NCBI GenBank assembly: GCA_045612465.1
Contig: JAZKZC010000092.1
Location: 1 to 47,323, forward strand
Length of the DNA stretch: 47,323 nucleotides
Direction of reading: 5' to 3'
From: Eubacteriales bacterium
GTDB lineage: Bacteria; Bacillota; Clostridia; Oscillospirales; CAG-272
Below are positions 2,432 through 35,232 of this stretch, in pieces. The translations under genes and the position numbers were made by a program. Position 1 is the first letter of the stretch. Each line of letters begins with the position of its first letter. Below the pieces are notes generated by a model. The model ran no database searches. It had not been told where the DNA came from and was given only the letters and a program-made list of their open reading frames with translations.

Positions 2432-3496
2432 TTATCCCTTTGTCAACCACCATGTAAGGAAGACGGCCCCAATTGTTGCCGCAGCGCCAATAAATGCAAC
2501 CAACAACTGAATTCCGTATTTTTCCATCCACGTCTTTTTCTCAGTCGGAGTGTTGTGTAACACTTGATTGGTATTACCTCCAGTAGAAATGTTAGCTCCG
2601 GATATATTACCTTGAAAATATACATTGGTTACATTTTGAGCAGGTTGGGTATCTACAGAAGCAGCTGCGGTGTCTTCGGACTTTTCAATATAACTTGAAT
2701 AATTATCTTTAATTGCATTTAACTTCGCGGTAAGTTCCTCAAACAATCGTCTGTCAGTCCAACCTCTAAATCTATCAAAAAGATCATATGTTTCTTGTAT
2801 GAAATCATCTTGTTTGAGTTTCTTCAGTTCTATCTTGACAGATTCTTTCCACGCTATGAATATTGGTTGATTGTATATGCTTTCAGTTCGAGGAAAGCCC
2901 GCCCCACCCTCGCTAATCACAAAAGCCTTTTTAATTTGGGGAATTTGATCAATCAATTCAAACAATTTTGATGTTGTTTCTGTGCTCATGGTATTCGTTT
3001 CTCCTTGCTCTATTTTTAATGTCCATTCCCATAATTCGTTTTTTACCTTTTCAACAATGCCAAGCAAAGATTCTTTTGTAATAAAAAGCGCTGACTCAAA
3101 AACGATTGGATATCCAGCCATCTCGGATATCTGCTGTGATGTGGCACCAGGGAATTTAATGTATAACGGATTTTGTTGATCCGATAATTTCAACAATTCA
3201 CTAACGGATTGATATATTTTTTTGTGCGTTAATATATTTTCGAGTTTTTGATCTTCAATTATTACTGGAATCCAACCGTTTATGGGATTATGCGACTTTA
3301 CAATTCCTCTAACATCTCGATATGAAGGGATCACATCGTTTTCGGGAGGATATCCGTTCAATTCGTTTTGAATCCACTTGCCAAATTCAGTCATTTGACA
3401 TCTTACGGCTATTCGATGAGCTTTTCTCAATAAGGTAACAATATCACACTTGTCTTTTAATATCTCATCTTGAAGTTCTGTAATTAAGTTTCCCAT
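2432..3496 (-). CDS. AbiTii-like N-terminal domain protein with a single C-terminal transmembrane helix
   Basis: 354 aa. The N-terminus LITELQDEILKDKCDIVTLLRKAHRIAVRCQMTEFGKWIQNELNGYPPENDVIPSYRDV resembles the AbiTii abortive-infection domain pattern (LLRKA...W...ELNGY), as I recall it. The C-terminus IQLLVAFIGAAATIGAVFLTWWL is a hydrophobic tail anchor. Confidence 0.6.
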   Translation of the reverse strand: MGNLITELQDEILKDKCDIVTLLRKAHRIAVRCQMTEFGKWIQNELNGYPPENDVIPSYRDVRGIVKSHNPINGWIPVIIEDQKLENILTHKKIYQSVSELLKLSDQQNPLYIKFPGATSQQISEMAGYPIVFESALFITKESLLGIVEKVKNELWEWTLKIEQGETNTMSTETTSKLFELIDQIPQIKKAFVISEGGAGFPRTESIYNQPIFIAWKESVKIELKKLKQDDFIQETYDLFDRFRGWTDRRLFEELTAKLNAIKDNYSSYIEKSEDTAAASVDTQPAQNVTNVYFQGNISGANISTGGNTNQVLHNTPTEKKTWMEKYGIQLLVAFIGAAATIGAVFLTWWLTKG

Positions 3497-3506
3497 TTGT
3501 ACTCTC

Positions 3507-4004
3507 CTACACAGAGGTTTCCATCTTTTTTAAGTATTTTGCTATACTGATTCCACGATCTTCGGTGGGAGAGAATTCAACTCTGAAATCCATCAAACCG
3601 AGGTTGATAAGTCTATACCGAATTGCAGATTTCGAAGCAAAGAAATATAACTTCATTCTTCGAATACAACTCTTATAATCCAAGAAATTGCATTGTTGTC
3701 TATCTACATACAATACTCCCGTTCGTCCATTCCAGTCCATAAATTCATCAAAGACCGGTTTAAGTAAATGGAATGGGAGTAAGAGGCAGGCGGCAAAAAA
3801 GTTTGCCTCTACCTCTTTCTTTGCTCTTTCATGCACAGAATCATCCAATCGTTCAAAATCTCTATCAAGACAGACTGTTTCAGACTCAGTATCATCCAAA
3901 TGATTCAAGAAGTAATGACCTAATTCATGGGCAATAGTAAATACTTGCATATGCTCTGTGTGCTTGGCATTGTAGTATATCACCGGAGTATCGTTTATGT
4001 ACAT
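3507..4004 (-). CDS. ImmA/IrrE (M78, COG2856) zinc metallopeptidase domain protein without an HTH domain
   Basis: 165 aa. It has the HEXXH motif (FTIAHELGHYFLNH) followed by EVEANFFAACLLLP, the typical E-x-x-A-N-x-F-A...L-P motif of this family. The peptidase domain begins at the N-terminus, and no XRE gene is adjacent. Confidence 0.8.
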   Translation of the reverse strand: MYINDTPVIYYNAKHTEHMQVFTIAHELGHYFLNHLDDTESETVCLDRDFERLDDSVHERAKKEVEANFFAACLLLPFHLLKPVFDEFMDWNGRTGVLYVDRQQCNFLDYKSCIRRMKLYFFASKSAIRYRLINLGLMDFRVEFSPTEDRGISIAKYLKKMETSV

Positions 4005-4045
4005 AAAGCGTCCGCAGACTTCTTCTGACCATTCGTGATAATCAA

Positions 4046-5413
4046 TTAATTCAATTCCTTCACCAAATTGGCTGTATCATCTGTTGAATCTTCTCCAAAC
4101 GAGCGCGCAGCTTGGCGAACATCATATTGTTCATATTTCTGATTATTAAACTCAAGAATATGAGCGTTTGGCATGGAATCAGCTACAGTAACTTGTCCAT
4201 TCATAAGCATGGGAAGTAGCCAATCTCGAAGTTCTTTAAGCTCGCGGTTCTCCTTGCGAAGACACTTTTGCTTATCCATAATGGGCGCGTATATCTCCAC
4301 AAATGCGCGCATTGTCTTTTCATCCGGAATAGGAAGTAAAAATGACGCACTTACATCTGGTTGAATGCGTTTTCTGCTACCAGTAGATGCGATGGCGTTT
4401 TCTACCATATGAACGTAAAAAGCCTCAGAATCAAGAACAGCATAGCAGAATGGACGAGTCCACAATTCTCTTGGGCGATATACGATAAATTCAGTAGAAC
4501 ATATTGAATTTGCGGTGTCGCAATATGGATCCCACAAGCGCTTAAAATGCGGGTTAAGCTTCGATGTCAAAATGCATTCGGGCGTAACAGCATACTTACC
4601 ACTCTCAATAGTTTTAGCAGACTCATATACAGGACTGTGATTTTCATCGAACGCAGGAATACTATAGTGTTCCATTATGGTATCCCCCAACTTTTTGGGG
4701 TTAACGGAAACATTATCGATTTTCATTAAGTCATCAACTGTTCCTACTTTCCACCCCTTGGGAATTTTTCGTTTGAGTTGATCGTTCCACTCCATAGCAC
4801 CACCAGAGGAACGATAGGGTTTTCCGTCTGCGCTTGAAAAATCAAACTGTGTAAACCAATAGTCATAGAGCGTTTTTGACATGGATTTCAACTCTGTGCA
4901 AATGCGAGAGTTGTTTTGAATCAAGTCATCAATCGCAGATAAAACATCGGCAATTTTTGTTTGTGTTGATACTCCACATTCGGGGAATGGAAAACCTTTT
5001 ATATCGTCTGAATTTAAATTCTTGCGAACGCCTCCAGCTAATGCTCTGAGCTGTTCGTAGTTATTCTTGATCCAATAGTAAAGAAATCTATAATCTGCTT
5101 TTTTAGAATCAACAACAATATTACAGCAAGCTTGATTTGTTGTTGCAGGTATCATCAAGATTGATGCATTTCCGCGAGTTTTTCCTTCTCCATACATTGC
5201 TACAGAAATGGTTTTTGAAGGCCACAATTTTATTGTGGTTTCTTGGAGCGCAACACTTGAAATATATTCATTTGCATCATAGATTTTATATTCGCCCAAT
5301 TGCTCTGTTTTTACCCATGGAATATCATTTGAATTCCAATATTTATTGTTACTACGCAGGGGAGTGATGCCACTTCCTATTTCAGCCGAAATATCAAATA
5401 TTGTTCTACTCAT
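4046..5413 (-). CDS. hsdS: Type I restriction-modification specificity subunit
   Basis: 455 aa with a two-TRD layout. There is a central conserved helix (TQTKIADVLSAIDDLIQNN...LYDYWF) and a distal one (RELKELRDWLLPMLMNGQVTV). It overlaps hsdM by 8 nt. Confidence 0.9.
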   Translation of the reverse strand: MSRTIFDISAEIGSGITPLRSNNKYWNSNDIPWVKTEQLGEYKIYDANEYISSVALQETTIKLWPSKTISVAMYGEGKTRGNASILMIPATTNQACCNIVVDSKKADYRFLYYWIKNNYEQLRALAGGVRKNLNSDDIKGFPFPECGVSTQTKIADVLSAIDDLIQNNSRICTELKSMSKTLYDYWFTQFDFSSADGKPYRSSGGAMEWNDQLKRKIPKGWKVGTVDDLMKIDNVSVNPKKLGDTIMEHYSIPAFDENHSPVYESAKTIESGKYAVTPECILTSKLNPHFKRLWDPYCDTANSICSTEFIVYRPRELWTRPFCYAVLDSEAFYVHMVENAIASTGSRKRIQPDVSASFLLPIPDEKTMRAFVEIYAPIMDKQKCLRKENRELKELRDWLLPMLMNGQVTVADSMPNAHILEFNNQKYEQYDVRQAARSFGEDSTDDTANLVKELN

Positions 5414-7049
5414 GACGAATCCTCTTTAATTGTTGCGTTACTTCAGCTTCCAATCGGTGACTTTGCGTAAACATTTCATCTAAACGTTTAGCATATTCAT
5501 TCATCTTGTCTGTAAATTCTTGGGATGTTAATTCTACATACTCAACTTTCACCTCAAAGTATTGGCCAGCCGAGAAAGATAGCTTTTTGGCCTCGATATC
5601 AGTATAACTAACATCTATACAAAAATCATTATCGGTTCTTCCAGCGTTGAAGGTATCAATAATTTTATTGATTTCTTCCAGGCTTAAGACTGTTCGTTGA
5701 TTCTTTCCGTCAAGTTTTTCTTTCGTGCCGAGTTTAGATGCATCCATCAAAACAACTTTTTCGTTTTTCTTTTCTTTGTCAATAAAGATAATGGATACGT
5801 TTGTGCCAGTAGTAGCGAAGATGTTTGATGGCATAGAAATAACACCGCACAGCATTCGATTGCTAACTAAATGTTCACGAATTGCGTATGCAATTTTATT
5901 GGATCTGTTACTTGCGGTCAAAAATCCCGTGGGTACAACAATCGCTGCCTTTCCGTTATCTCCAAGAGAATGGATAATATGCTGAAGGAACATTAGATGT
6001 ATTGCCATGCTATCCTTGTCTTGATTAGGAATATTCGGTACACCGGCAAAGAAACGCTTTTTATGTTTCTCATCTGCCAGTTCATCACGGTTATCGCTGA
6101 AATCGGTATTGAAAGGAGGATTGCTGACGATATAGTCAAACTGCGCCAAACGATCTCCTTTTTTGTTTTTGTGAAAAGGTTTTGTCAGTGTATCGCCATA
6201 AATGATATTAGGCAACGAATGGACAAGATTGTTGAGAATCAGATTCAGGCGCAAAAACTCATTGGATTTTTGAGATATATCCTGTGTAAAAATGGTACAG
6301 TTATCCTCACCAATCTCGTGCGCCAAAGCCAAAATCAGCGTACCGGATCCGGCAGCAGGGTCATACACCGTAACATTCTGTGCACCGTTCGGAACCATTA
6401 TCTTTGCGATAATGGTAGCAATGGAATGGGGCGTATAGTATTCTGCGTATTTACCAAAGTCCTTGTTATAGTCTTTGATGAGATACTCGAAGATCTGTGC
6501 AAAGAAGTCGTATTTCTGTGCGAATACATTTTCAAAGCTATGAGAAGCAATTTTAGAAATGATGGCTTTACAGAAATTATCCTTTTCATTTTCTTCGGTT
6601 ACGTGTTGTGAGATGCCGTTGAAAAGCTTGATTTTGGATTGTCCACTCGTATGTACAGAAAAGACATCAATATTGTGATTAGCGATATCGATAAGCGTGG
6701 AATCAAACAGTTTATGAAAACCTTCCGTGTTTTGATGGTTGAACAAATAGGAAATCAAGTGCTCCTTTTTAAGAGTAGCTACACTCGCTCCAAAGTCCAA
6801 CAAAAACAGTTCGTATTCGTCTGCCGTCATTTCAGCCAAAGCTGTTTCTACCTCTGCAGACGTTTTATTTGCGAAATCGGTTTTTACCCTTTTTGCTTCA
6901 GCAAGGAATTTATCATTCAAAAACTTATACAGAAATACTTCCGTAATGATCTTGTATTCACTTGAAGCATTTCCAAGTCCATAGTTAGTACAAACCGCTT
7001 TCAGATTGTCAATCATCTGCTTGGTTTGCAAGGTTATATTGTTATCCAT
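5406..7049 (-). CDS. hsdM: Type I restriction-modification N6-adenine DNA methyltransferase subunit
   Basis: 547 aa. It has an AdoMet motif (DPAAGSGTL) and the catalytic NPPF (IVSNPPFNTDF). It overlaps hsdR by 1 nt. Confidence 0.95.
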   Translation of the reverse strand: MDNNITLQTKQMIDNLKAVCTNYGLGNASSEYKIITEVFLYKFLNDKFLAEAKRVKTDFANKTSAEVETALAEMTADEYELFLLDFGASVATLKKEHLISYLFNHQNTEGFHKLFDSTLIDIANHNIDVFSVHTSGQSKIKLFNGISQHVTEENEKDNFCKAIISKIASHSFENVFAQKYDFFAQIFEYLIKDYNKDFGKYAEYYTPHSIATIIAKIMVPNGAQNVTVYDPAAGSGTLILALAHEIGEDNCTIFTQDISQKSNEFLRLNLILNNLVHSLPNIIYGDTLTKPFHKNKKGDRLAQFDYIVSNPPFNTDFSDNRDELADEKHKKRFFAGVPNIPNQDKDSMAIHLMFLQHIIHSLGDNGKAAIVVPTGFLTASNRSNKIAYAIREHLVSNRMLCGVISMPSNIFATTGTNVSIIFIDKEKKNEKVVLMDASKLGTKEKLDGKNQRTVLSLEEINKIIDTFNAGRTDNDFCIDVSYTDIEAKKLSFSAGQYFEVKVEYVELTSQEFTDKMNEYAKRLDEMFTQSHRLEAEVTQQLKRIRHE

Positions 7050-10156: not shown

Positions 10157-12004
10157 TTACCATGCGTACATTTTAAGAAGTGTTTCCACAATCTTATCCG
10201 TTCTTGCGGTTATTTTGTCGACAGTCCATTCTGTTTCGGTTACTACATCCTCATTGAGAAAAAGACCATTTTTGTAACCAATATTCTTAGATTTATCTTT
10301 TGATTGTCTGTCCTTTTTATGTTCAAAAGACATGTTGGAAAGATTCTGATTGTAGCCGGTAATTGTTAAATTACCAAGGGTATGTACATAATCAGCTCTG
10401 ATTTGAATTGCCTTAGCTTTGTCGCCGTTTGCAATCATATCAACCCATTCTTTCGGGATATTTTCTCCTTCGGGAAATATGTGTTCAATTGTCCAAACAT
10501 ATTTATTGCTTGTGTCTCTGGACCACAAATCAGAATATATTTCCTTGGTTTGATGTTGTGCTTCGACATTACAGAGAACAAATCGCGTTGCTTCGGGATT
10601 TTCATCGTAAATCGGACCACGGAGTTTTTCCTCAAAGGTTTCATCCGTTGCCGAAACAGCTTTAAGCATCTCTTTAATAGTTCCTGCGATTTCATTTCCG
10701 CTTTCCGATTTGATTTTTGCAATAATATCAATAAATAATTGAGTGAGTTTGCGGGTGTTCGGAACGTCGGTTAGGTTTCTTCTTACAAAGAAAATGATTA
10801 GAGTATCCACTATGGCTTTGATATTTTCATCCGAAAGAGACAGAGTTTCTTGGTTAGTTAACAAATACATCAACAACAAGTAAGAAGGAGCGCCTGAAAT
10901 CCTCGCTAAATTCTGTAAACTTGTTGTATACACGAATTCGTCTTCAGTGTTATTGACGATAACGGCATATTTGTTTGCTTTTTCAGAAAGATTCTCTAAA
11001 AGAGCTTGATAGTCACTTTTGATCATCTTCTCATAAATATCGATTAAAGTTGTTCTTGTCGCCAAATAGCCAAGATAGTACTTCTTTTCTGTTGATTTAT
11101 AGGGTGCATTGAGTTCATCCCTAAATGCATTATAGAATTGTCTAAAGAAACGTTCCTGAACAGAATATTCATCTTGTCCTACAGCTTTCAAAATCTGTTT
11201 CCATTGTTCATATGCATTATCCGCATCGGCAGAATTTTCTGCCTGTGCAATAAGAGAATTCTTAATTAAGTCAAGAGCAGAAAGAGGAACACCTCTATGG
11301 TTAAGTGATTCGAAAAGCATGTAAGCGTCTTTATTCGTATCTACTTCAATTCCCACTAATACTGCCGATTCAAACTTTCTGACAATTTGGAATAACGCTC
11401 CTACATCGGTAATGTTTGGATTGTCATTTTTGATTTCTTGCACTTCATCTGATATCAGTTTTAGAAAATGGCGATACGCTTTAGCAATCCTTCTGTTGCC
11501 AAAGTTCGATGGTTTCGTATGTTTAACGGTTATAATTCCGTTATCTGAAAGAATATAAGTATAGTCCTCGTCGTTTGAGTTTTGTTTTTGCAACAGAAGT
11601 CTTTGATTGTATTCGGTAACTTTTCCACCAGTAGCGGTAAACTTTTGCTTTTTATTAGCAAGCTCGTTTCGTAAGTTGGAAAGCTCACTTGAATCATCTT
11701 CGTCCATTTCAGTTTTGTGCTTGGAAAGTTCAGCATAAAGCGCCGCTAACAATAATGTTATTGTTGAAAAACGTTGCTGTCCGTCGATAACCTCTAAAAT
11801 AGTTCCTTTAAGAGAGCCGCTGTTCACACAAATATAAGAACCCAAAAAGTAACCAAAATCATTTTCAGTAACATCATTGAACAACGCATCCCATTCTTTG
11901 ATGCCCCAAGTATATTCACGTTGATACTTTGGAATTTTATATATCTTATCGCTGGTTATAGAAAACACATCAGCAATTGTTGTTTGCGATACAGTTTTTA
12001 TCAT
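10157..12004 (-). CDS. DUF262 plus DUF1524 protein (GmrSD-like, putative type IV modification-dependent restriction enzyme)
   Basis: 615 aa. The N-terminal DGQQR motif (EVIDGQQRFSTITLLL) marks DUF262. The C-terminal EHIFP...HTLGNLTITGYNQNLSN is the His-Me-like DUF1524 motif. Confidence 0.85.
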   Translation of the reverse strand: MIKTVSQTTIADVFSITSDKIYKIPKYQREYTWGIKEWDALFNDVTENDFGYFLGSYICVNSGSLKGTILEVIDGQQRFSTITLLLAALYAELSKHKTEMDEDDSSELSNLRNELANKKQKFTATGGKVTEYNQRLLLQKQNSNDEDYTYILSDNGIITVKHTKPSNFGNRRIAKAYRHFLKLISDEVQEIKNDNPNITDVGALFQIVRKFESAVLVGIEVDTNKDAYMLFESLNHRGVPLSALDLIKNSLIAQAENSADADNAYEQWKQILKAVGQDEYSVQERFFRQFYNAFRDELNAPYKSTEKKYYLGYLATRTTLIDIYEKMIKSDYQALLENLSEKANKYAVIVNNTEDEFVYTTSLQNLARISGAPSYLLLMYLLTNQETLSLSDENIKAIVDTLIIFFVRRNLTDVPNTRKLTQLFIDIIAKIKSESGNEIAGTIKEMLKAVSATDETFEEKLRGPIYDENPEATRFVLCNVEAQHQTKEIYSDLWSRDTSNKYVWTIEHIFPEGENIPKEWVDMIANGDKAKAIQIRADYVHTLGNLTITGYNQNLSNMSFEHKKDRQSKDKSKNIGYKNGLFLNEDVVTETEWTVDKITARTDKIVETLLKMYAW

Positions 12005-12056: not shown

Positions 12057-12473
12057 TTATCCTTCATTCCGCTGCTTATAAATCTCCTTCAGATCCTCGA
12101 TTGCCACTTCAGGGGCGAGGGTATGGAAGATGAGCCAATTTCGGCTCATGGTCTCGGCAGGAGCTTGTTTGTAGATTTCTTTACTGTCTTCTCCGGTATT
12201 GAAGTGCCAGAAACGGTAGAGGTAACCTGCCCAATAGAGCACTTCTTTATCGTACACGGAGCCGCTTGTTGTTAACTCTGCGTTATCGGCAATCTCTGCG
12301 AGGAGATATTCTTCACCTGCCCACTGTAAGCGGTTGAACTTGGAGTCAAGTCCTTTGGCGACATCGCTTGTCATAAACGCTTTGATAAATGGTGCGCTAT
12401 CGTATCCCTTAGCACCTGACAGCTCAAAAAGTCTGCCTTGTATATCACACATTTTTAGCTGGAGTTCGTTCAT
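12057..12473 (-). CDS. Hypothetical 138-aa protein, partner of the HTH::DUF3990 gene
   Basis: The ORF starts 12 nt downstream of the stop of the 12486-13349 gene on the same strand. I recognise no motif. Confidence 0.6.
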   Translation of the reverse strand: MNELQLKMCDIQGRLFELSGAKGYDSAPFIKAFMTSDVAKGLDSKFNRLQWAGEEYLLAEIADNAELTTSGSVYDKEVLYWAGYLYRFWHFNTGEDSKEIYKQAPAETMSRNWLIFHTLAPEVAIEDLKEIYKQRNEG

Positions 12474-12485
12474 TGTTATCTCCCT

Positions 12486-13349
12486 TTATTTTGCTTCATC
12501 CAATATCTCATCAAAGAACTTTCCTTCACGGCGGTAATTCTTGCAAATATCGTTTGCAAGTGTAATGCCTTTCTGACGGTTCGCTTCGCTTTCATCTTGA
12601 AGAAATCTGCGCTCGAGCATCGAGATAGGAATCTCTTTTTCAATTTTGATGGCTGCACAAGCCTTTTCGGTGGTCGCTACGTACTGTTTACCGAGTTTTA
12701 GTGCGGATAGGCTGTTTACCAGAGCTGCATCCGTGATGTTACCCATAAAGAAATTATCAAGCACGTAGAACATTCTGTCATTTGCAATGCTTCCGATTAC
12801 GAGATCCTTGCCGGCATCAATGTTGCTGTATTTATTATAAAATTCCGTATCCTTGATCTTATCCATTCTTACTCTGTGGAAGGCAACGAGCATTGCCCAA
12901 TCAAGATCGGCTTTGATCTCTACGGTATTGAGGGCGCGTACATCAACGGAAACGATATAAAACTTTGATTTTTCAAAGTCACAGATGAGCGTTAGGGGCT
13001 GTCCGGGATCGGTACCCATATAAAAGCCTCTACCGAAGTCACACATCTCACGACTCTTGGGGGCTATGTCGCCAATGATACCGGACTTTGAGCCGTGGTA
13101 AAGCAGAACGCGTCCTTCTTCAAGATTGATTGCCTCGGCTTCTGCCTTGATCTTATCAAGAATAGTCTGATATACGGAGATATTGTTTTCTTGACAGAAA
13201 TTATATAATTGCGTTTGCGCCATGCGGTTGGGGAGCGTTTTGCCGTTTTCCCAGCGGTTGATGGAAAGCGGAGTTGTGCCGAGGGCACTTGCAAACTGTT
13301 CCTGATTCATATTTGCCGCAGAGCGTATCGCTTTGATCAGTTCTTTCAT
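12486..13349 (-). CDS. XRE-family HTH fused to a DUF3990 domain
   Basis: 287 aa. The N-terminus MNQEQFASALGTTPLSINRWENGKTLP is an XRE HTH. It is followed by LLYHGSKSG...DFGRGFYMGT...VIGSIANDRMFYVLDNFFMGNITDAALVNSLSALKLGKQYV. This matches the DUF3990 pattern, including the conserved FY motif. Confidence 0.75.
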   Translation of the reverse strand: MKELIKAIRSAANMNQEQFASALGTTPLSINRWENGKTLPNRMAQTQLYNFCQENNISVYQTILDKIKAEAEAINLEEGRVLLYHGSKSGIIGDIAPKSREMCDFGRGFYMGTDPGQPLTLICDFEKSKFYIVSVDVRALNTVEIKADLDWAMLVAFHRVRMDKIKDTEFYNKYSNIDAGKDLVIGSIANDRMFYVLDNFFMGNITDAALVNSLSALKLGKQYVATTEKACAAIKIEKEIPISMLERRFLQDESEANRQKGITLANDICKNYRREGKFFDEILDEAK

Positions 13350-13357
13350 GATATACC

Positions 13358-13410
13358 ACCTATCATTTGTAGTCGAATACTATTATATACTATGATAGGT
13401 AATTTGTCAA
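13358..13410 (-). promoter_or_regulatory. Consensus sigma-A promoter with an overlapping 9-bp inverted repeat (putative operator)
   Basis: The minus strand reads TTGACA (13410-13405), a 17-nt spacer, then TATAAT (13387-13382). The inverted repeat ACCTATCAT (13358-13366) / ATGATAGGT (13392-13400) brackets the -10 element and the start region. Confidence 0.7.
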
Positions 13411-13488
13411 TTACATAAACCTATAATCGATGATGTTTTATAAAATAATGTAGAATTTGTGTATCTATGTGTGATTACAATGATATAA

Positions 13489-13525
13489 ATTGAAAAGAAA
13501 AACTTCGAGAGGGAAGCTCGAAGTT
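13489..13525 (-). terminator. Rho-independent terminator of the metallophosphoesterase gene
   Basis: Stem AACTTCGAG (13501-13509) / CTCGAAGTT (13517-13525), followed on the minus strand by a T-rich run. Confidence 0.65.
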
Positions 13526-13546
13526 TGATTCAAATGTTATTATATT

Positions 13547-33141: not shown

Positions 33142-33397
33142 TAGATAATTAGGCTGTGATGAAGGCAGTAGGGCAGGATCAATGTTTACAGAGAACCGCA
33201 TATCTGGTGTAAGTGCGGTAACAAATTTTACCTGAAGAACACTTCGGAGCTTGCGGAAGAAAGCCGAAAGGTTATTAGAACCGCACGTTGATCGCGTAAA
33301 GATTTAATGAAGCGGACCGTTTTGCGGTCAATTTGGGTGGTATCGCGGAAGTTTGCCTTTCGTCCCATGTTTGTGGGATGAAAGGCTTTTTGTTTTT
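33142..33397 (+). promoter_or_regulatory. T-box riboswitch leader
   Basis: The T-box sequence is AATTTGGGTGGTATCGCGG (33331-33349). Stem I has GA/AG elements (TGATGAAGGCAGTAGG, CAGAGAA). The specifier-loop context is CCTGAAGAACACTTCGGAGC. The terminator stem GCCTTTCGTCCCA / TGGGATGAAAGGC (33355-33386) is followed by TTTTTGTTTTT. Confidence 0.85.
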
Positions 33398-33456: not shown

Positions 33457-35232
33457 ATGCTTAGAACACACACTTGTAATGAACTCGGTATTGACAATAT
33501 CGGACAAAAGGTAACACTTACAGGCTGGATGGATACTGTGCGTGACCACGGAGGCGTGCTCTTTATTGACCTTCGTGACCATTACGGAGTAACACAGATC
33601 GTCCTTTCCGACGATTCGCTCATCGCGGGCATCGCAAAGGAAACAGTTATCCTCGTTGAGGGTATCGTTTCAAAAAGAGATGAAGAAACGGTAAACCCCA
33701 AGATCGCAACAGGTCTTATCGAAGTAAAGGCTGAAAAGGTTGAGGTGCTCGGCCCCTGCCAGCTCGGACTTCCTTTCGAAATCGACTCATCAACACAGAC
33801 AAGAGAAGAAGTAAGACTTAAATACAGATATCTTGACTTGCGTAACAGAAAGATTCACGACAACATCGTGCTTCGTTCGAAGATACTCAGCTATCTGCGT
33901 TCACAGATGGAGGATCTCGGATTTTTGGAAATACAGACACCTATTCTTACAGCTTCCTCTCCCGAGGGCGCAAGAGACTATCTCGTTCCCAGCCGTAAGC
34001 ACAAGGGCAAGTTCTACGCTCTGCCTCAGGCACCCCAGCAGTTCAAACAGCTTCTTATGGCATCGGGATTTGACCGCTACTTCCAGATCGCTCCCTGTTT
34101 CCGCGACGAGGACGCACGTCAGGACAGATCCCCCGGTGAATTCTATCAGCTCGACTTTGAAATGTCCTTTGCAACACAGGAAGACGTATTTGCGGTTGCC
34201 GAAACTGTTGTGTACAACACATTCACAAAGTTCTCTGATAAAAAGGTATCAAAGCCCCCGTTCAGAAGAATCACATTTGCAGATGCAATGCTGAAGTACG
34301 GTACAGATAAACCCGACCTCCGCAACCCTCTTGAAATCAAGGACCTCACGGACTTCTTTGCAACACACGAATTCCTTGACATCAACGGCAGAACGGTTCC
34401 GTTCAAGAACAAGCTTGTACGCGGTATCGTTGCAAACTACCTTGTAAAGAAAGACGGCGAGGGCGACGGTAAAAAGGCATTTGAAAAGGCGATCGACACA
34501 TATTCAAGAAGCATCGGAATGAAGTTCGGATGCGGATATATAACTCTTGAGGGCGGAGATTTCAAAGGCCCTATTGCAAAATTCCTTACAGACGAACAGA
34601 AAAAAGAGCTTTGTGAGCTTTGCGGTGTAAAGGAAGGCGATTCCATATTCTTCATCAGTGACAGTGCATCTGTCATCGACCGTCTTTCGGGCGAAATGAG
34701 AACTTGGATCGGTAACGAGCTTGGACTTATCAAGGACGATTCCTTTGAATTCTGCTTCATCGTTGACTTCCCGATGTATGAGCTTAATGCTGAAACGGGA
34801 AGAATTGACTTCACACACAACCCCTTCTCAATGCCTCAGGGCGGTATGGATGCGCTTCTTAACAAGGATCCGCTTGAAATATTCGCATATCAGTATGATA
34901 TTGTTTGTAACGGCGTTGAGCTTTCTTCGGGTGCTGTACGTAACCACAACCCCGAAATAATGAGAAAGGCATTTGAAATCGCAGGCTACGGCGAGGAAGA
35001 CCTCAAGGCGAAGTTCGGCGCGCTTTATACAGCGTTTGCTTACGGTGCTCCCCCTCACGCAGGTATGGCTCCCGGTGTTGACAGAATGATAATGCTTATC
35101 GCAGGTGAGGAAACAATAAGAGACGTTATCGCATTCCCGCTTAACGGAAATGCGCAGGACCTTATGATGGGTGCTCCCGGTGAAGTTACTGAGCAGCAGC
35201 TCCGTGAGGTTCACATAAAAGTAAGAGATTGA
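33457..35232 (+). CDS. aspS: Aspartyl-tRNA synthetase (bacterial type)
   Basis: 591 aa with class II motif 2 (FRDEDARQDRSPGEFYQLDFE) and motif 3 (GAPPHAGMAPGVDRM). Confidence 0.95.
   Translation: MLRTHTCNELGIDNIGQKVTLTGWMDTVRDHGGVLFIDLRDHYGVTQIVLSDDSLIAGIAKETVILVEGIVSKRDEETVNPKIATGLIEVKAEKVEVLGPCQLGLPFEIDSSTQTREEVRLKYRYLDLRNRKIHDNIVLRSKILSYLRSQMEDLGFLEIQTPILTASSPEGARDYLVPSRKHKGKFYALPQAPQQFKQLLMASGFDRYFQIAPCFRDEDARQDRSPGEFYQLDFEMSFATQEDVFAVAETVVYNTFTKFSDKKVSKPPFRRITFADAMLKYGTDKPDLRNPLEIKDLTDFFATHEFLDINGRTVPFKNKLVRGIVANYLVKKDGEGDGKKAFEKAIDTYSRSIGMKFGCGYITLEGGDFKGPIAKFLTDEQKKELCELCGVKEGDSIFFISDSASVIDRLSGEMRTWIGNELGLIKDDSFEFCFIVDFPMYELNAETGRIDFTHNPFSMPQGGMDALLNKDPLEIFAYQYDIVCNGVELSSGAVRNHNPEIMRKAFEIAGYGEEDLKAKFGALYTAFAYGAPPHAGMAPGVDRMIMLIAGEETIRDVIAFPLNGNAQDLMMGAPGEVTEQQLREVHIKVRD

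Follow-up and report, generated by a model that had tools for sequence, protein, structure and literature searches.

We examined a 47,323-nucleotide (nt) stretch of DNA from a Eubacteriales bacterium (assembly GCA_045612465.1, contig JAZKZC010000092.1, positions 1 to 47,323), hereafter the window, with attention to two adjacent genes on its reverse strand that we call A and B. Gene A (12486..13349, reverse strand) encodes a protein of 287 amino acids (aa) in which an XRE-type helix-turn-helix (HTH) is fused to a DUF3990 domain. Gene B (12057..12473, reverse strand) encodes a 138-aa, all-helical partner that is a distant relative of DUF3791 and matches the PADLOC model PDC-M42B. An initial annotation of this DNA had described such a two-gene layout, with a 138-aa partner placed 12 nt after the fusion protein, and the coordinates of the open reading frames (ORFs) agree with it (gap, 12474-12485). 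For comparison, we collected 80 loci carrying relatives of A (61-97% identity), nearly all of them from metagenome-assembled genomes (MAGs) of gut or rumen Clostridia.

Upstream of A lies a sigma-70-type promoter of the form TTGACA-17-TATAAT (13382..13410, reverse strand). It matches the consensus at 12 of 12 positions, as the initial annotation had stated, and is the sole perfect match in the region; by our estimate, about 6e-4 such matches per 1.8 kb would be expected by chance. Most of the 80 related loci have a TTGACA/TAnAAT promoter in the corresponding place. Further upstream, an intrinsic terminator consisting of a 10-bp stem followed by a T-run (13500..13526, reverse strand) closes the preceding (metallo)phosphoesterase gene, and the A-B pair therefore begins its own transcription unit from an insulated promoter.

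In the related genomes, B lay directly after A in all 77 loci that could be resolved, while the remaining 3 of the 80 end at a contig edge. The distance between the two genes was -8 to +13 nt in 75 of these 77 loci, and in many the stop and start codons overlap. When the search was started from B, A was found directly upstream in 64 of 76 resolvable metagenome loci. On viral contigs, A was directly upstream of B in 12 of 14 loci, and B followed A in each of the 12 that held A. None of the loci examined contained A without B. Conversely, B without an intact A was found in the following settings: between mfd and pfl genes and behind an unrelated 274-aa protein, which may be Abi_2/AbiD-F-like (L148 and L172, 2304-3917); directly before a Fic gene (L153, 3501-4541); next to a truncated A (L160); behind an uncharacterised 238-aa protein (L083, 252-1559); and behind a PtuA-like ABC ATPase (L084, ATPase at 2716-3981, B at 4001-4456). 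That B sometimes occurs without A and A never without B is the pattern expected if A is harmful and B is its antidote.

Three proteins in which A and B appear fused (P0288, P0301 and P0309) were considered as evidence of interaction and set aside as internal-deletion or assembly chimeras or fragments of the operon. At one locus (L014), a 709-aa DUF262/GmrSD-like gene (4385-6514) is inserted between A (3497-4360) and B (6507-6923), overlapping the start of B; a gene encoding a Fic protein with a winged HTH follows B. In this case a defence gene sits inside the pair.

The initial annotation had also reported an inverted repeat at the promoter, and we found its exact arms around the -10 region. 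Read on the coding strand, the first arm, ACCTATCAT (13392..13400), lies within the spacer between the -35 and -10 hexamers, at a conserved position. The second, ATGATAGGT (13358..13366), lies 15 nt past the -10 hexamer, and part of it coincides with the Shine-Dalgarno sequence AGGTGG (13361-13356). The two arms match exactly over 9 bp, and over 18 nt their complementarity is 78%. An exact 9-bp repeat within 110 nt would be expected about 0.02 times by chance, and the conservation of the repeat across related loci takes it far beyond chance. Indeed, the upstream layout is kept across these loci: the -35 hexamer, a half-site in the spacer, the -10 hexamer, about 15 nt, the second half-site, and the ribosome-binding site.

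The sequence of the half-sites differs by clade, and both arms change together with the recognition helix of the HTH. Half-sites of the type CTATCAT/ATGATAG accompany the recognition helix TTPLSINRWENGKT in 9 of 9 loci, and TATAACA/TGTTATA half-sites accompany VTFATVNRWENGRA-type helices in 54 of 54, while TATCATT/AATGATA-like half-sites were found with [GR]Y[IL]T helices in two loci (L057 and L068). The HTH part of A also diverges faster than the enzyme part; the relative at L009, for example, is 77% identical to A overall compared to 89% over residues 75-287. Since operator and recognition helix co-vary, we conclude that the HTH of A is likely to read the half-sites. Judged by its conservation, the inverted repeat is a genuine operator, and autoregulation of the A-B operon by the HTH of A, which the initial annotation had suspected from the look of the operator, is well supported by the co-variation. 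The combination of two tightly linked genes with a DNA-binding autoregulator, as in type II-like systems, is present here as far as linkage and the predicted operator are concerned.

Four loci (L011, L014, L017 and L029) depart from this arrangement, in that the usual promoter and operator are missing from the 110 nt upstream of A. They share instead a GC-rich upstream sequence (...CGAGGCAGATTG...GCGTTGCGTGAAGCGCAAC...), into which the reading frame of A can be extended. A group II intron or a riboswitch upstream of A at these four loci was considered and discarded, as no Rfam match was obtained.

Residues 1-72 of A (13134..13349, reverse strand) comprise the XRE-type HTH and a linker helix. 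The HTH_3 match covers residues 5-41 (E = 7.7e-8), and the HTH_3 and HTH_19 matches together span residues 3-49. In an AlphaFold2 (AF2) model this region consists of five helices, with a predicted local distance difference test (pLDDT) score above 90, and its Foldseek matches include P22 c2, HigA2, and the 434 repressor, with root-mean-square deviations of 1.1-1.8 Å.

The body of A, residues 82-235 (12645..13106, reverse strand), is a DUF3990 domain with the likeness of an ADP-ribosyltransferase (ART), assigned from the Pfam match, the signature residues and Foldseek. The match to PF13151 is strong (E = 2.8e-28, 98.9 bits against a gathering cut-off of 32.2) and extends over profile positions 2-151 of 152. 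The initial annotation had grouped DUF3990 with ART-like folds and had suggested that its LYHGS and GRGFY motifs fit an ART of the H-Y type. Both points found support: DUF3990 belongs to the ADP-ribosyl clan of Pfam (PMC7955679), and the motifs are invariant and, together with D104, W151, R159, and D182, reproduce the published signature of the Tox-ART-HYD2 toxins, namely H, D, GFY, W, and R (PMC3482391). In A, these residues are H85, D104, G108-F109-Y110, W151, R159, and D182. Among 47 homologues, the invariant positions are L83-Y-H-G-S-K88, C103-D-F-G-x-G-F-Y-M-G112, W151, R159, D182, G186, and A189. Alignment with distant stand-alone DUF3990 proteins from a Lactobacillus plasmid and Geobacillus phage E3, at 27-30% identity, retains YHGS, DFGxGFY, Q117, W151, R159, D182, G186, and A189.

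In Tox-ART-HYD2, strands 1, 2, and 5 contribute the active-site residues H, Y, and D, respectively (PMC5512222). The AF2 model of A (pLDDT 84) has strand 1 ending at H85, strand 2 containing Y110, and strand 5 starting with D182. The signature residues of Tox-ART-HYD2 are found in the sequence of A, and the strand positions in the model agree. From the motifs and the distribution, we infer that DUF3990 and Tox-ART-HYD2 are the same domain. When A was compared with the PDB by Foldseek, the top matches outside the HTH were all ARTs, though weak ones: tankyrase-2 (E = 0.039, prob 0.87), tankyrase-1, diphtheria toxin, PARP14, PARP1, and PARP10.

DUF3990 is also found as the C-terminal toxin tip of Rhs effectors of the type VI secretion system in Serratia and Enterobacter, and in Serratia the Rhs-DUF3990 gene has a putative immunity gene immediately downstream (PMC4524185, PMC10763514). 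By analogy with this position at the tip of Rhs toxins, the domain may be toxic on its own. Residues 240-287 of A (12489..12632, reverse strand) form a conserved C-terminal helical extension, with helices at 244-272 and 279-286, whose invariant residues include R258, G261, N266, K270, R273, R274, D280, and E281. This extension is specific to the HTH-fused subfamily, being absent from stand-alone DUF3990 proteins, and it may serve as a partner-binding or dimerisation surface.

At normal thresholds, protein B gave no match to Pfam, NCBIfam, or PDB sequences. Its AF2 model (pLDDT 90.6) is all-helical with ten helices, and Foldseek with this high-confidence model found no match in the PDB (best E 1.6) or in BFVD (best E 1.1). 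Against DUF3791, B scores below the gathering cut-off (14.4 bits compared to 25, E = 0.039) and over residues 112-134 only, while 5 of 83 members of the B family match DUF3791 at E ≤ 0.01 (best 4.3e-5). Thus, B may be described as a long, divergent DUF3791-like protein whose relationship to that family is distant at best. The partner is not as wholly unknown as the initial annotation had held, since its family touches DUF3791.

Among 1.8 billion representatives, the B family forms 1,151 clusters at 50% identity. Conserved polar residues are Q12, D43, Q50, R87, E95, S97, and H117. In some homologues a conserved stretch of about 100 aa is added at the C terminus (P0133, P0123, and P0135, of 239-242 aa; also those at L015, L017, L018, L022, L026, and L033), and single representatives contain a GNAT acetyltransferase domain or a long HExxH-containing region (P0244, 284 aa; P0306, 627 aa).

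On the same strand and downstream of the pair, the window holds a GmrSD-type (DUF262/DUF1524) gene with GmrSD_N and GmrSD_C matches (10157..12004, reverse strand), which begins 52 nt after B, followed by type I hsdRMS, a fragment of an M78 peptidase gene, AbiTii, and DUF3800. These co-directional genes justify the earlier description of the pair as standing at the head of a defence island. Neither a terminator nor a strong promoter was found between B and GmrSD or between GmrSD and hsdR. With no terminator downstream of the pair, the A-B promoter probably also drives the cargo genes. The GmrSD gene itself lies outside the conserved core, as interchangeable cargo that is probably reached by read-through from the A-B promoter. 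Genes for excisionase-like HTH_17 proteins adjoin the pair. Elsewhere in the window, a T-box leader (Rfam RF00230, 120 bits) at 33147-33370 on the forward strand precedes a 591-aa ORF (33457..35232); it is ordinary and unrelated to A-B.

In 59 of 71 related loci, the gene that follows B is on the same strand as the pair; in 48 it is no more than 100 nt away, and 47 of these 48 have no terminator-like hairpin before it. At least 30 of the 71 downstream genes are defence-related. They include Fic genes of the PDC-S04/S72 type (13), type I methylases (4), type II methylases (4), PDC-S14 (3), GmrSD (3), and Cas9 (2), as well as AbiH, PDC-S32, and YafQ; GmrSD is thus found behind the pair at just 3 of these 71 loci. 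On its upstream side the pair borders on unrelated housekeeping genes, and the unit therefore starts with it. The pair is a conserved head that stands before swappable cargo, and as a predicted repressor of the shared promoter, A very probably influences expression of that cargo. We considered whether B might be a FicA/VbhA-type antitoxin of a neighbouring Fic protein and rejected this, as B lacks the [ST]xxxE[GN] motif and Fic is only one of many cargo genes.

A gut metatranscriptome (run X3; positions 12110-13500 of the window) yielded short contigs of several A and B variants at 90-99% identity, none of them over GmrSD, and DNA carry-over is possible. Lacking GmrSD coverage, this dataset says nothing on read-through. 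The contigs fit expression of the A-B family with different cargo in that sample.

The HTH-fused branch is abundant in gut and rumen metagenomes, with 6,650 (A) and 2,670 (B) clusters at 90% identity. Besides Clostridia, MAGs labelled Selenomonadaceae, Kiritimatiellae, Sphaerochaetaceae, Bacteroidaceae, and Candidatus Spyradenecus also contain pairs that are 62-93% identical, which points either to a mobile island that has spread widely by horizontal transfer or to one that was mis-binned. An origin from phages or plasmids was considered and dropped: 50,697 phage and 72,556 plasmid records gave only distant DUF3990 matches, and B was found in neither set. IMG/VR contained 14 loci in 2.9 million contigs. 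On a 179-kb plasmid of Lactobacillus crispatus (NZ_CP047143.1; L081, 3989-4752), a 162-aa stand-alone DUF3990 protein overlaps by 1 nt a 91-aa partner that matches PDC-M13B/C, making this an HTH-less version of the pair.

The initial annotation had supposed that this architecture was undescribed for the family. This did not hold, as A matches PADLOC PDC-M42A (E = 6.6e-10 and 1.1e-7), PDC-M13A/B (down to 3.9e-17), and PDC-M10A, and B matches PDC-M42B over nearly its whole length (E = 4.4e-7). The adjacent, co-directional A-type and B-type proteins of PDC-M42 are both present. PDC-M42, PDC-M13, and PDC-M10, which share the family FAM_00403, are phage-defence candidates obtained by guilt-by-embedding in type I restriction-modification (RM), BREX, and DISARM loci and described explicitly as untested (Payne et al., bioRxiv 10.1101/2024.01.29.577857); like the A-B pair here, they are embedded in or beside RM and BREX-type loci. 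PDC-M42 is a three-gene cassette, FAM_00403>>FAM_03189>>FAM_00360, whereas conservation in the window and the 80 relatives is limited to two genes, with a third gene that varies (71 relatives). PDC-M42C (FAM_00360) was not among the 25 matches listed for the downstream GmrSD gene. Given the modest PDC-M42 scores, the A-B pair would represent a divergent branch, and because these candidates are untested, they supply a name rather than a mechanism. The pair is already listed as a defence candidate and is not a new kind of system.

ART-HYD2 toxin-antitoxin systems had likewise been predicted computationally (Iyer et al. 2017, PMC5512222). The DUF3990 domain of A shares its conserved-residue signature with Tox-ART-HYD2 (Zhang et al. 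2012, PMC3482391; PMC5512222) and differs in being cytoplasmic and in carrying an XRE HTH fused at its N terminus and a helical extension at its C terminus. CmdT, an H-Y-[E,D,Q] ART of the diphtheria-toxin family, has been shown by experiment to be the toxin of an anti-phage system of the toxin-antitoxin type (PMC11618068). CmdT is neutralised by a small, partly helical partner whose gene adjoins its own, an arrangement that A-B would resemble under the toxin-antidote reading. However, A has no PADLOC CmdT match and no SecB-like chaperone, CmdT has no HTH, and the partners belong to different families. We found no PADLOC or Pfam match to CmdT, DarT, a SecB-like chaperone, or a macrodomain antitoxin in A, B, or their neighbours.

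Pairing of an ART-clan toxin with a cognate neutraliser is known from DarTG and ParST/MbcTA, and in Xre-RES pairs, too, an XRE HTH goes together with a toxin of the ART clan. In these systems, however, the HTH or macrodomain resides on a separate antitoxin, whereas in A the ART-like domain and the HTH are parts of a single protein, and B has neither a macrodomain nor a DUF2384 domain. Small HTH repressors that act on their own operator at the head of many defence operons are represented by the controller (C) proteins of RM systems and by the BrxR/CapW regulators. Those, in contrast, have no toxin-type enzyme domain and no obligate small partner, and A-B has no WYL domain.

Taking these observations together, the reading that we tentatively favour is that A and B make up a self-contained conflict module of two genes, which is autoregulated and acts in a toxin-antidote or abortive-infection manner. 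For the enzymatic activity and toxicity of A, for which partner neutralises which, and for the trigger and the target, we infer the following scheme. The consensus sigma-70 promoter would drive A, B, and probably the cargo, which here is GmrSD and perhaps hsdRMS. As A accumulates, its XRE HTH would bind the two inverted half-sites, which lie on either side of the -10 hexamer and the start of transcription, and the promoter would be shut. The body of A, as a putative H-Y-D ADP-ribosyltransferase with an intact catalytic signature, would be the toxic effector and would use NAD+ to modify a protein or nucleic acid. B, made from the same mRNA, would bind and neutralise A, with the C-terminal helices of A as a candidate binding surface. 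If B were lost or displaced, for instance upon phage infection or loss of the element, the enzyme would be unleashed and growth would stop. The toxin-antitoxin or abortive module that the initial annotation had proposed remains plausible in this form, and it gains from the findings that A never occurs without B and that B is able to stand alone.

Several observations weigh against this toxin-antidote reading. The Foldseek matches of A to ARTs are weak (none at E ≤ 1e-3, TM scores of 0.25-0.35), so that the structural similarity anticipated by the initial annotation was seen in the identity of the top non-HTH hits but not in their significance. Moreover, the AF2 pLDDT is only 53-75 over residues 86-130, and the DUF3990 profile matched no PDB sequence even at E 10. 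Given these weak matches and the poorly modelled segment, the ART fold of the DUF3990 domain is supported but not proven by sequence and model. The half-sites are 34 bp apart from centre to centre, an unusual spacing that exceeds what a simple XRE dimer on a single palindrome could span. In canonical type II systems, it is the antitoxin, and not the toxin, that carries the DNA-binding domain and is encoded by the first gene. The placement of B after the PtuA-like ATPase and other unrelated proteins, as well as the GNAT and HExxH extensions at the C terminus of B homologues, would fit an adaptor or effector as well as an antidote, and the few cases of orphan B, which are not all independent of one another, trace back to only about five independent contexts. 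The steady placement of the pair before unterminated defence genes could mean that it is mainly a regulator. Finally, no experiments are known on any DUF3990 or DUF3791 protein.

The last point on placement leads to an alternative that we consider unlikely, in which the pair would gate transcription of the defence genes behind it. A would be the repressor of a strong promoter and neither protein would arrest growth; the ART-like domain and B would form a sensing or switching part, acting for example by ligand- or infection-dependent release or by timing establishment, as C proteins do. The operator is real, the gene behind B is mostly co-directional (59/71), close (<100 nt in 48), and free of a preceding hairpin (47/48), and the cargo is interchangeable and in at least 30 of 71 cases defence-related. 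In addition, the unit starts with the pair, behind unrelated housekeeping genes, and in the window neither a terminator nor a strong promoter separates B from GmrSD or GmrSD from hsdR. Such gating would nevertheless depend on read-through into the cargo; 12 of the 71 loci have a convergent downstream gene, and some have a terminator after B. The full toxin-type catalytic signature of the ART domain is invariant, which is more than a sensor needs, and DUF3990 pairs without any HTH exist, as on the L. crispatus plasmid. The same domain, furthermore, forms the tip of Rhs toxins (PMC4524185). A more far-reaching version, which we regard as improbable, would make the HTH-ART protein and its helical partner a new class of portable master switch for the defence islands of gut Clostridia. 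The promoter would then be opened for the cargo on infection or on entry into a new host, and the ART, tethered at the operator, would be no bulk toxin but would act as the switch by modifying itself, RNA polymerase, or nearby nucleic acid.

It is also conceivable, and to us hardly more than a slim chance, that the polarity is reversed, with B as effector or toxin and A as a DNA-binding antidote that represses the operon and neutralises B by binding or, in a type VII-like manner, by ADP-ribosylation. An HTH-bearing first gene has the position and the make-up of a canonical type II antitoxin, B occupies the place of an effector behind the PtuA-like ABC ATPase and stands beside other partners, and it has conserved polar residues. 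On the other hand, B is found alone in chromosomes and A never is, the opposite of what is expected of a toxin, and B has no recognisable catalytic fold or structural relative. DUF3990, moreover, is itself known as the toxin domain of secreted proteins (PMC4524185). We hold it to be very unlikely that the pair is the same toxin and antidote selected purely for addiction, in which case it would stabilise its mobile island and leave phages unaffected. Identities of 61-97% across MAGs of different families, even phyla, point to horizontal spread, the pair lies beside the excisionase-like HTH_17 genes in the window, and it is absent from the phage and plasmid reference collections. Yet it associates with defence genes and not with integrases or conjugation genes, and its relatives were found by guilt-by-embedding in type I RM, BREX, and DISARM loci (bioRxiv 10.1101/2024.01.29.577857).

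The A-B pair moves between distantly related gut bacteria and heads many different anti-phage genes. The comparative data offer two or three natural pairs of operator and HTH specificity, three candidate catalytic residues, and natural variants in which A is missing or truncated. If the ART domain is active, the pair would be another conflict system based on ADP-ribosylation, beside DarTG and CmdTAC. If the pair gates its cargo, this would explain how the mobile defence operons of gut Clostridia stay silent and then switch on.

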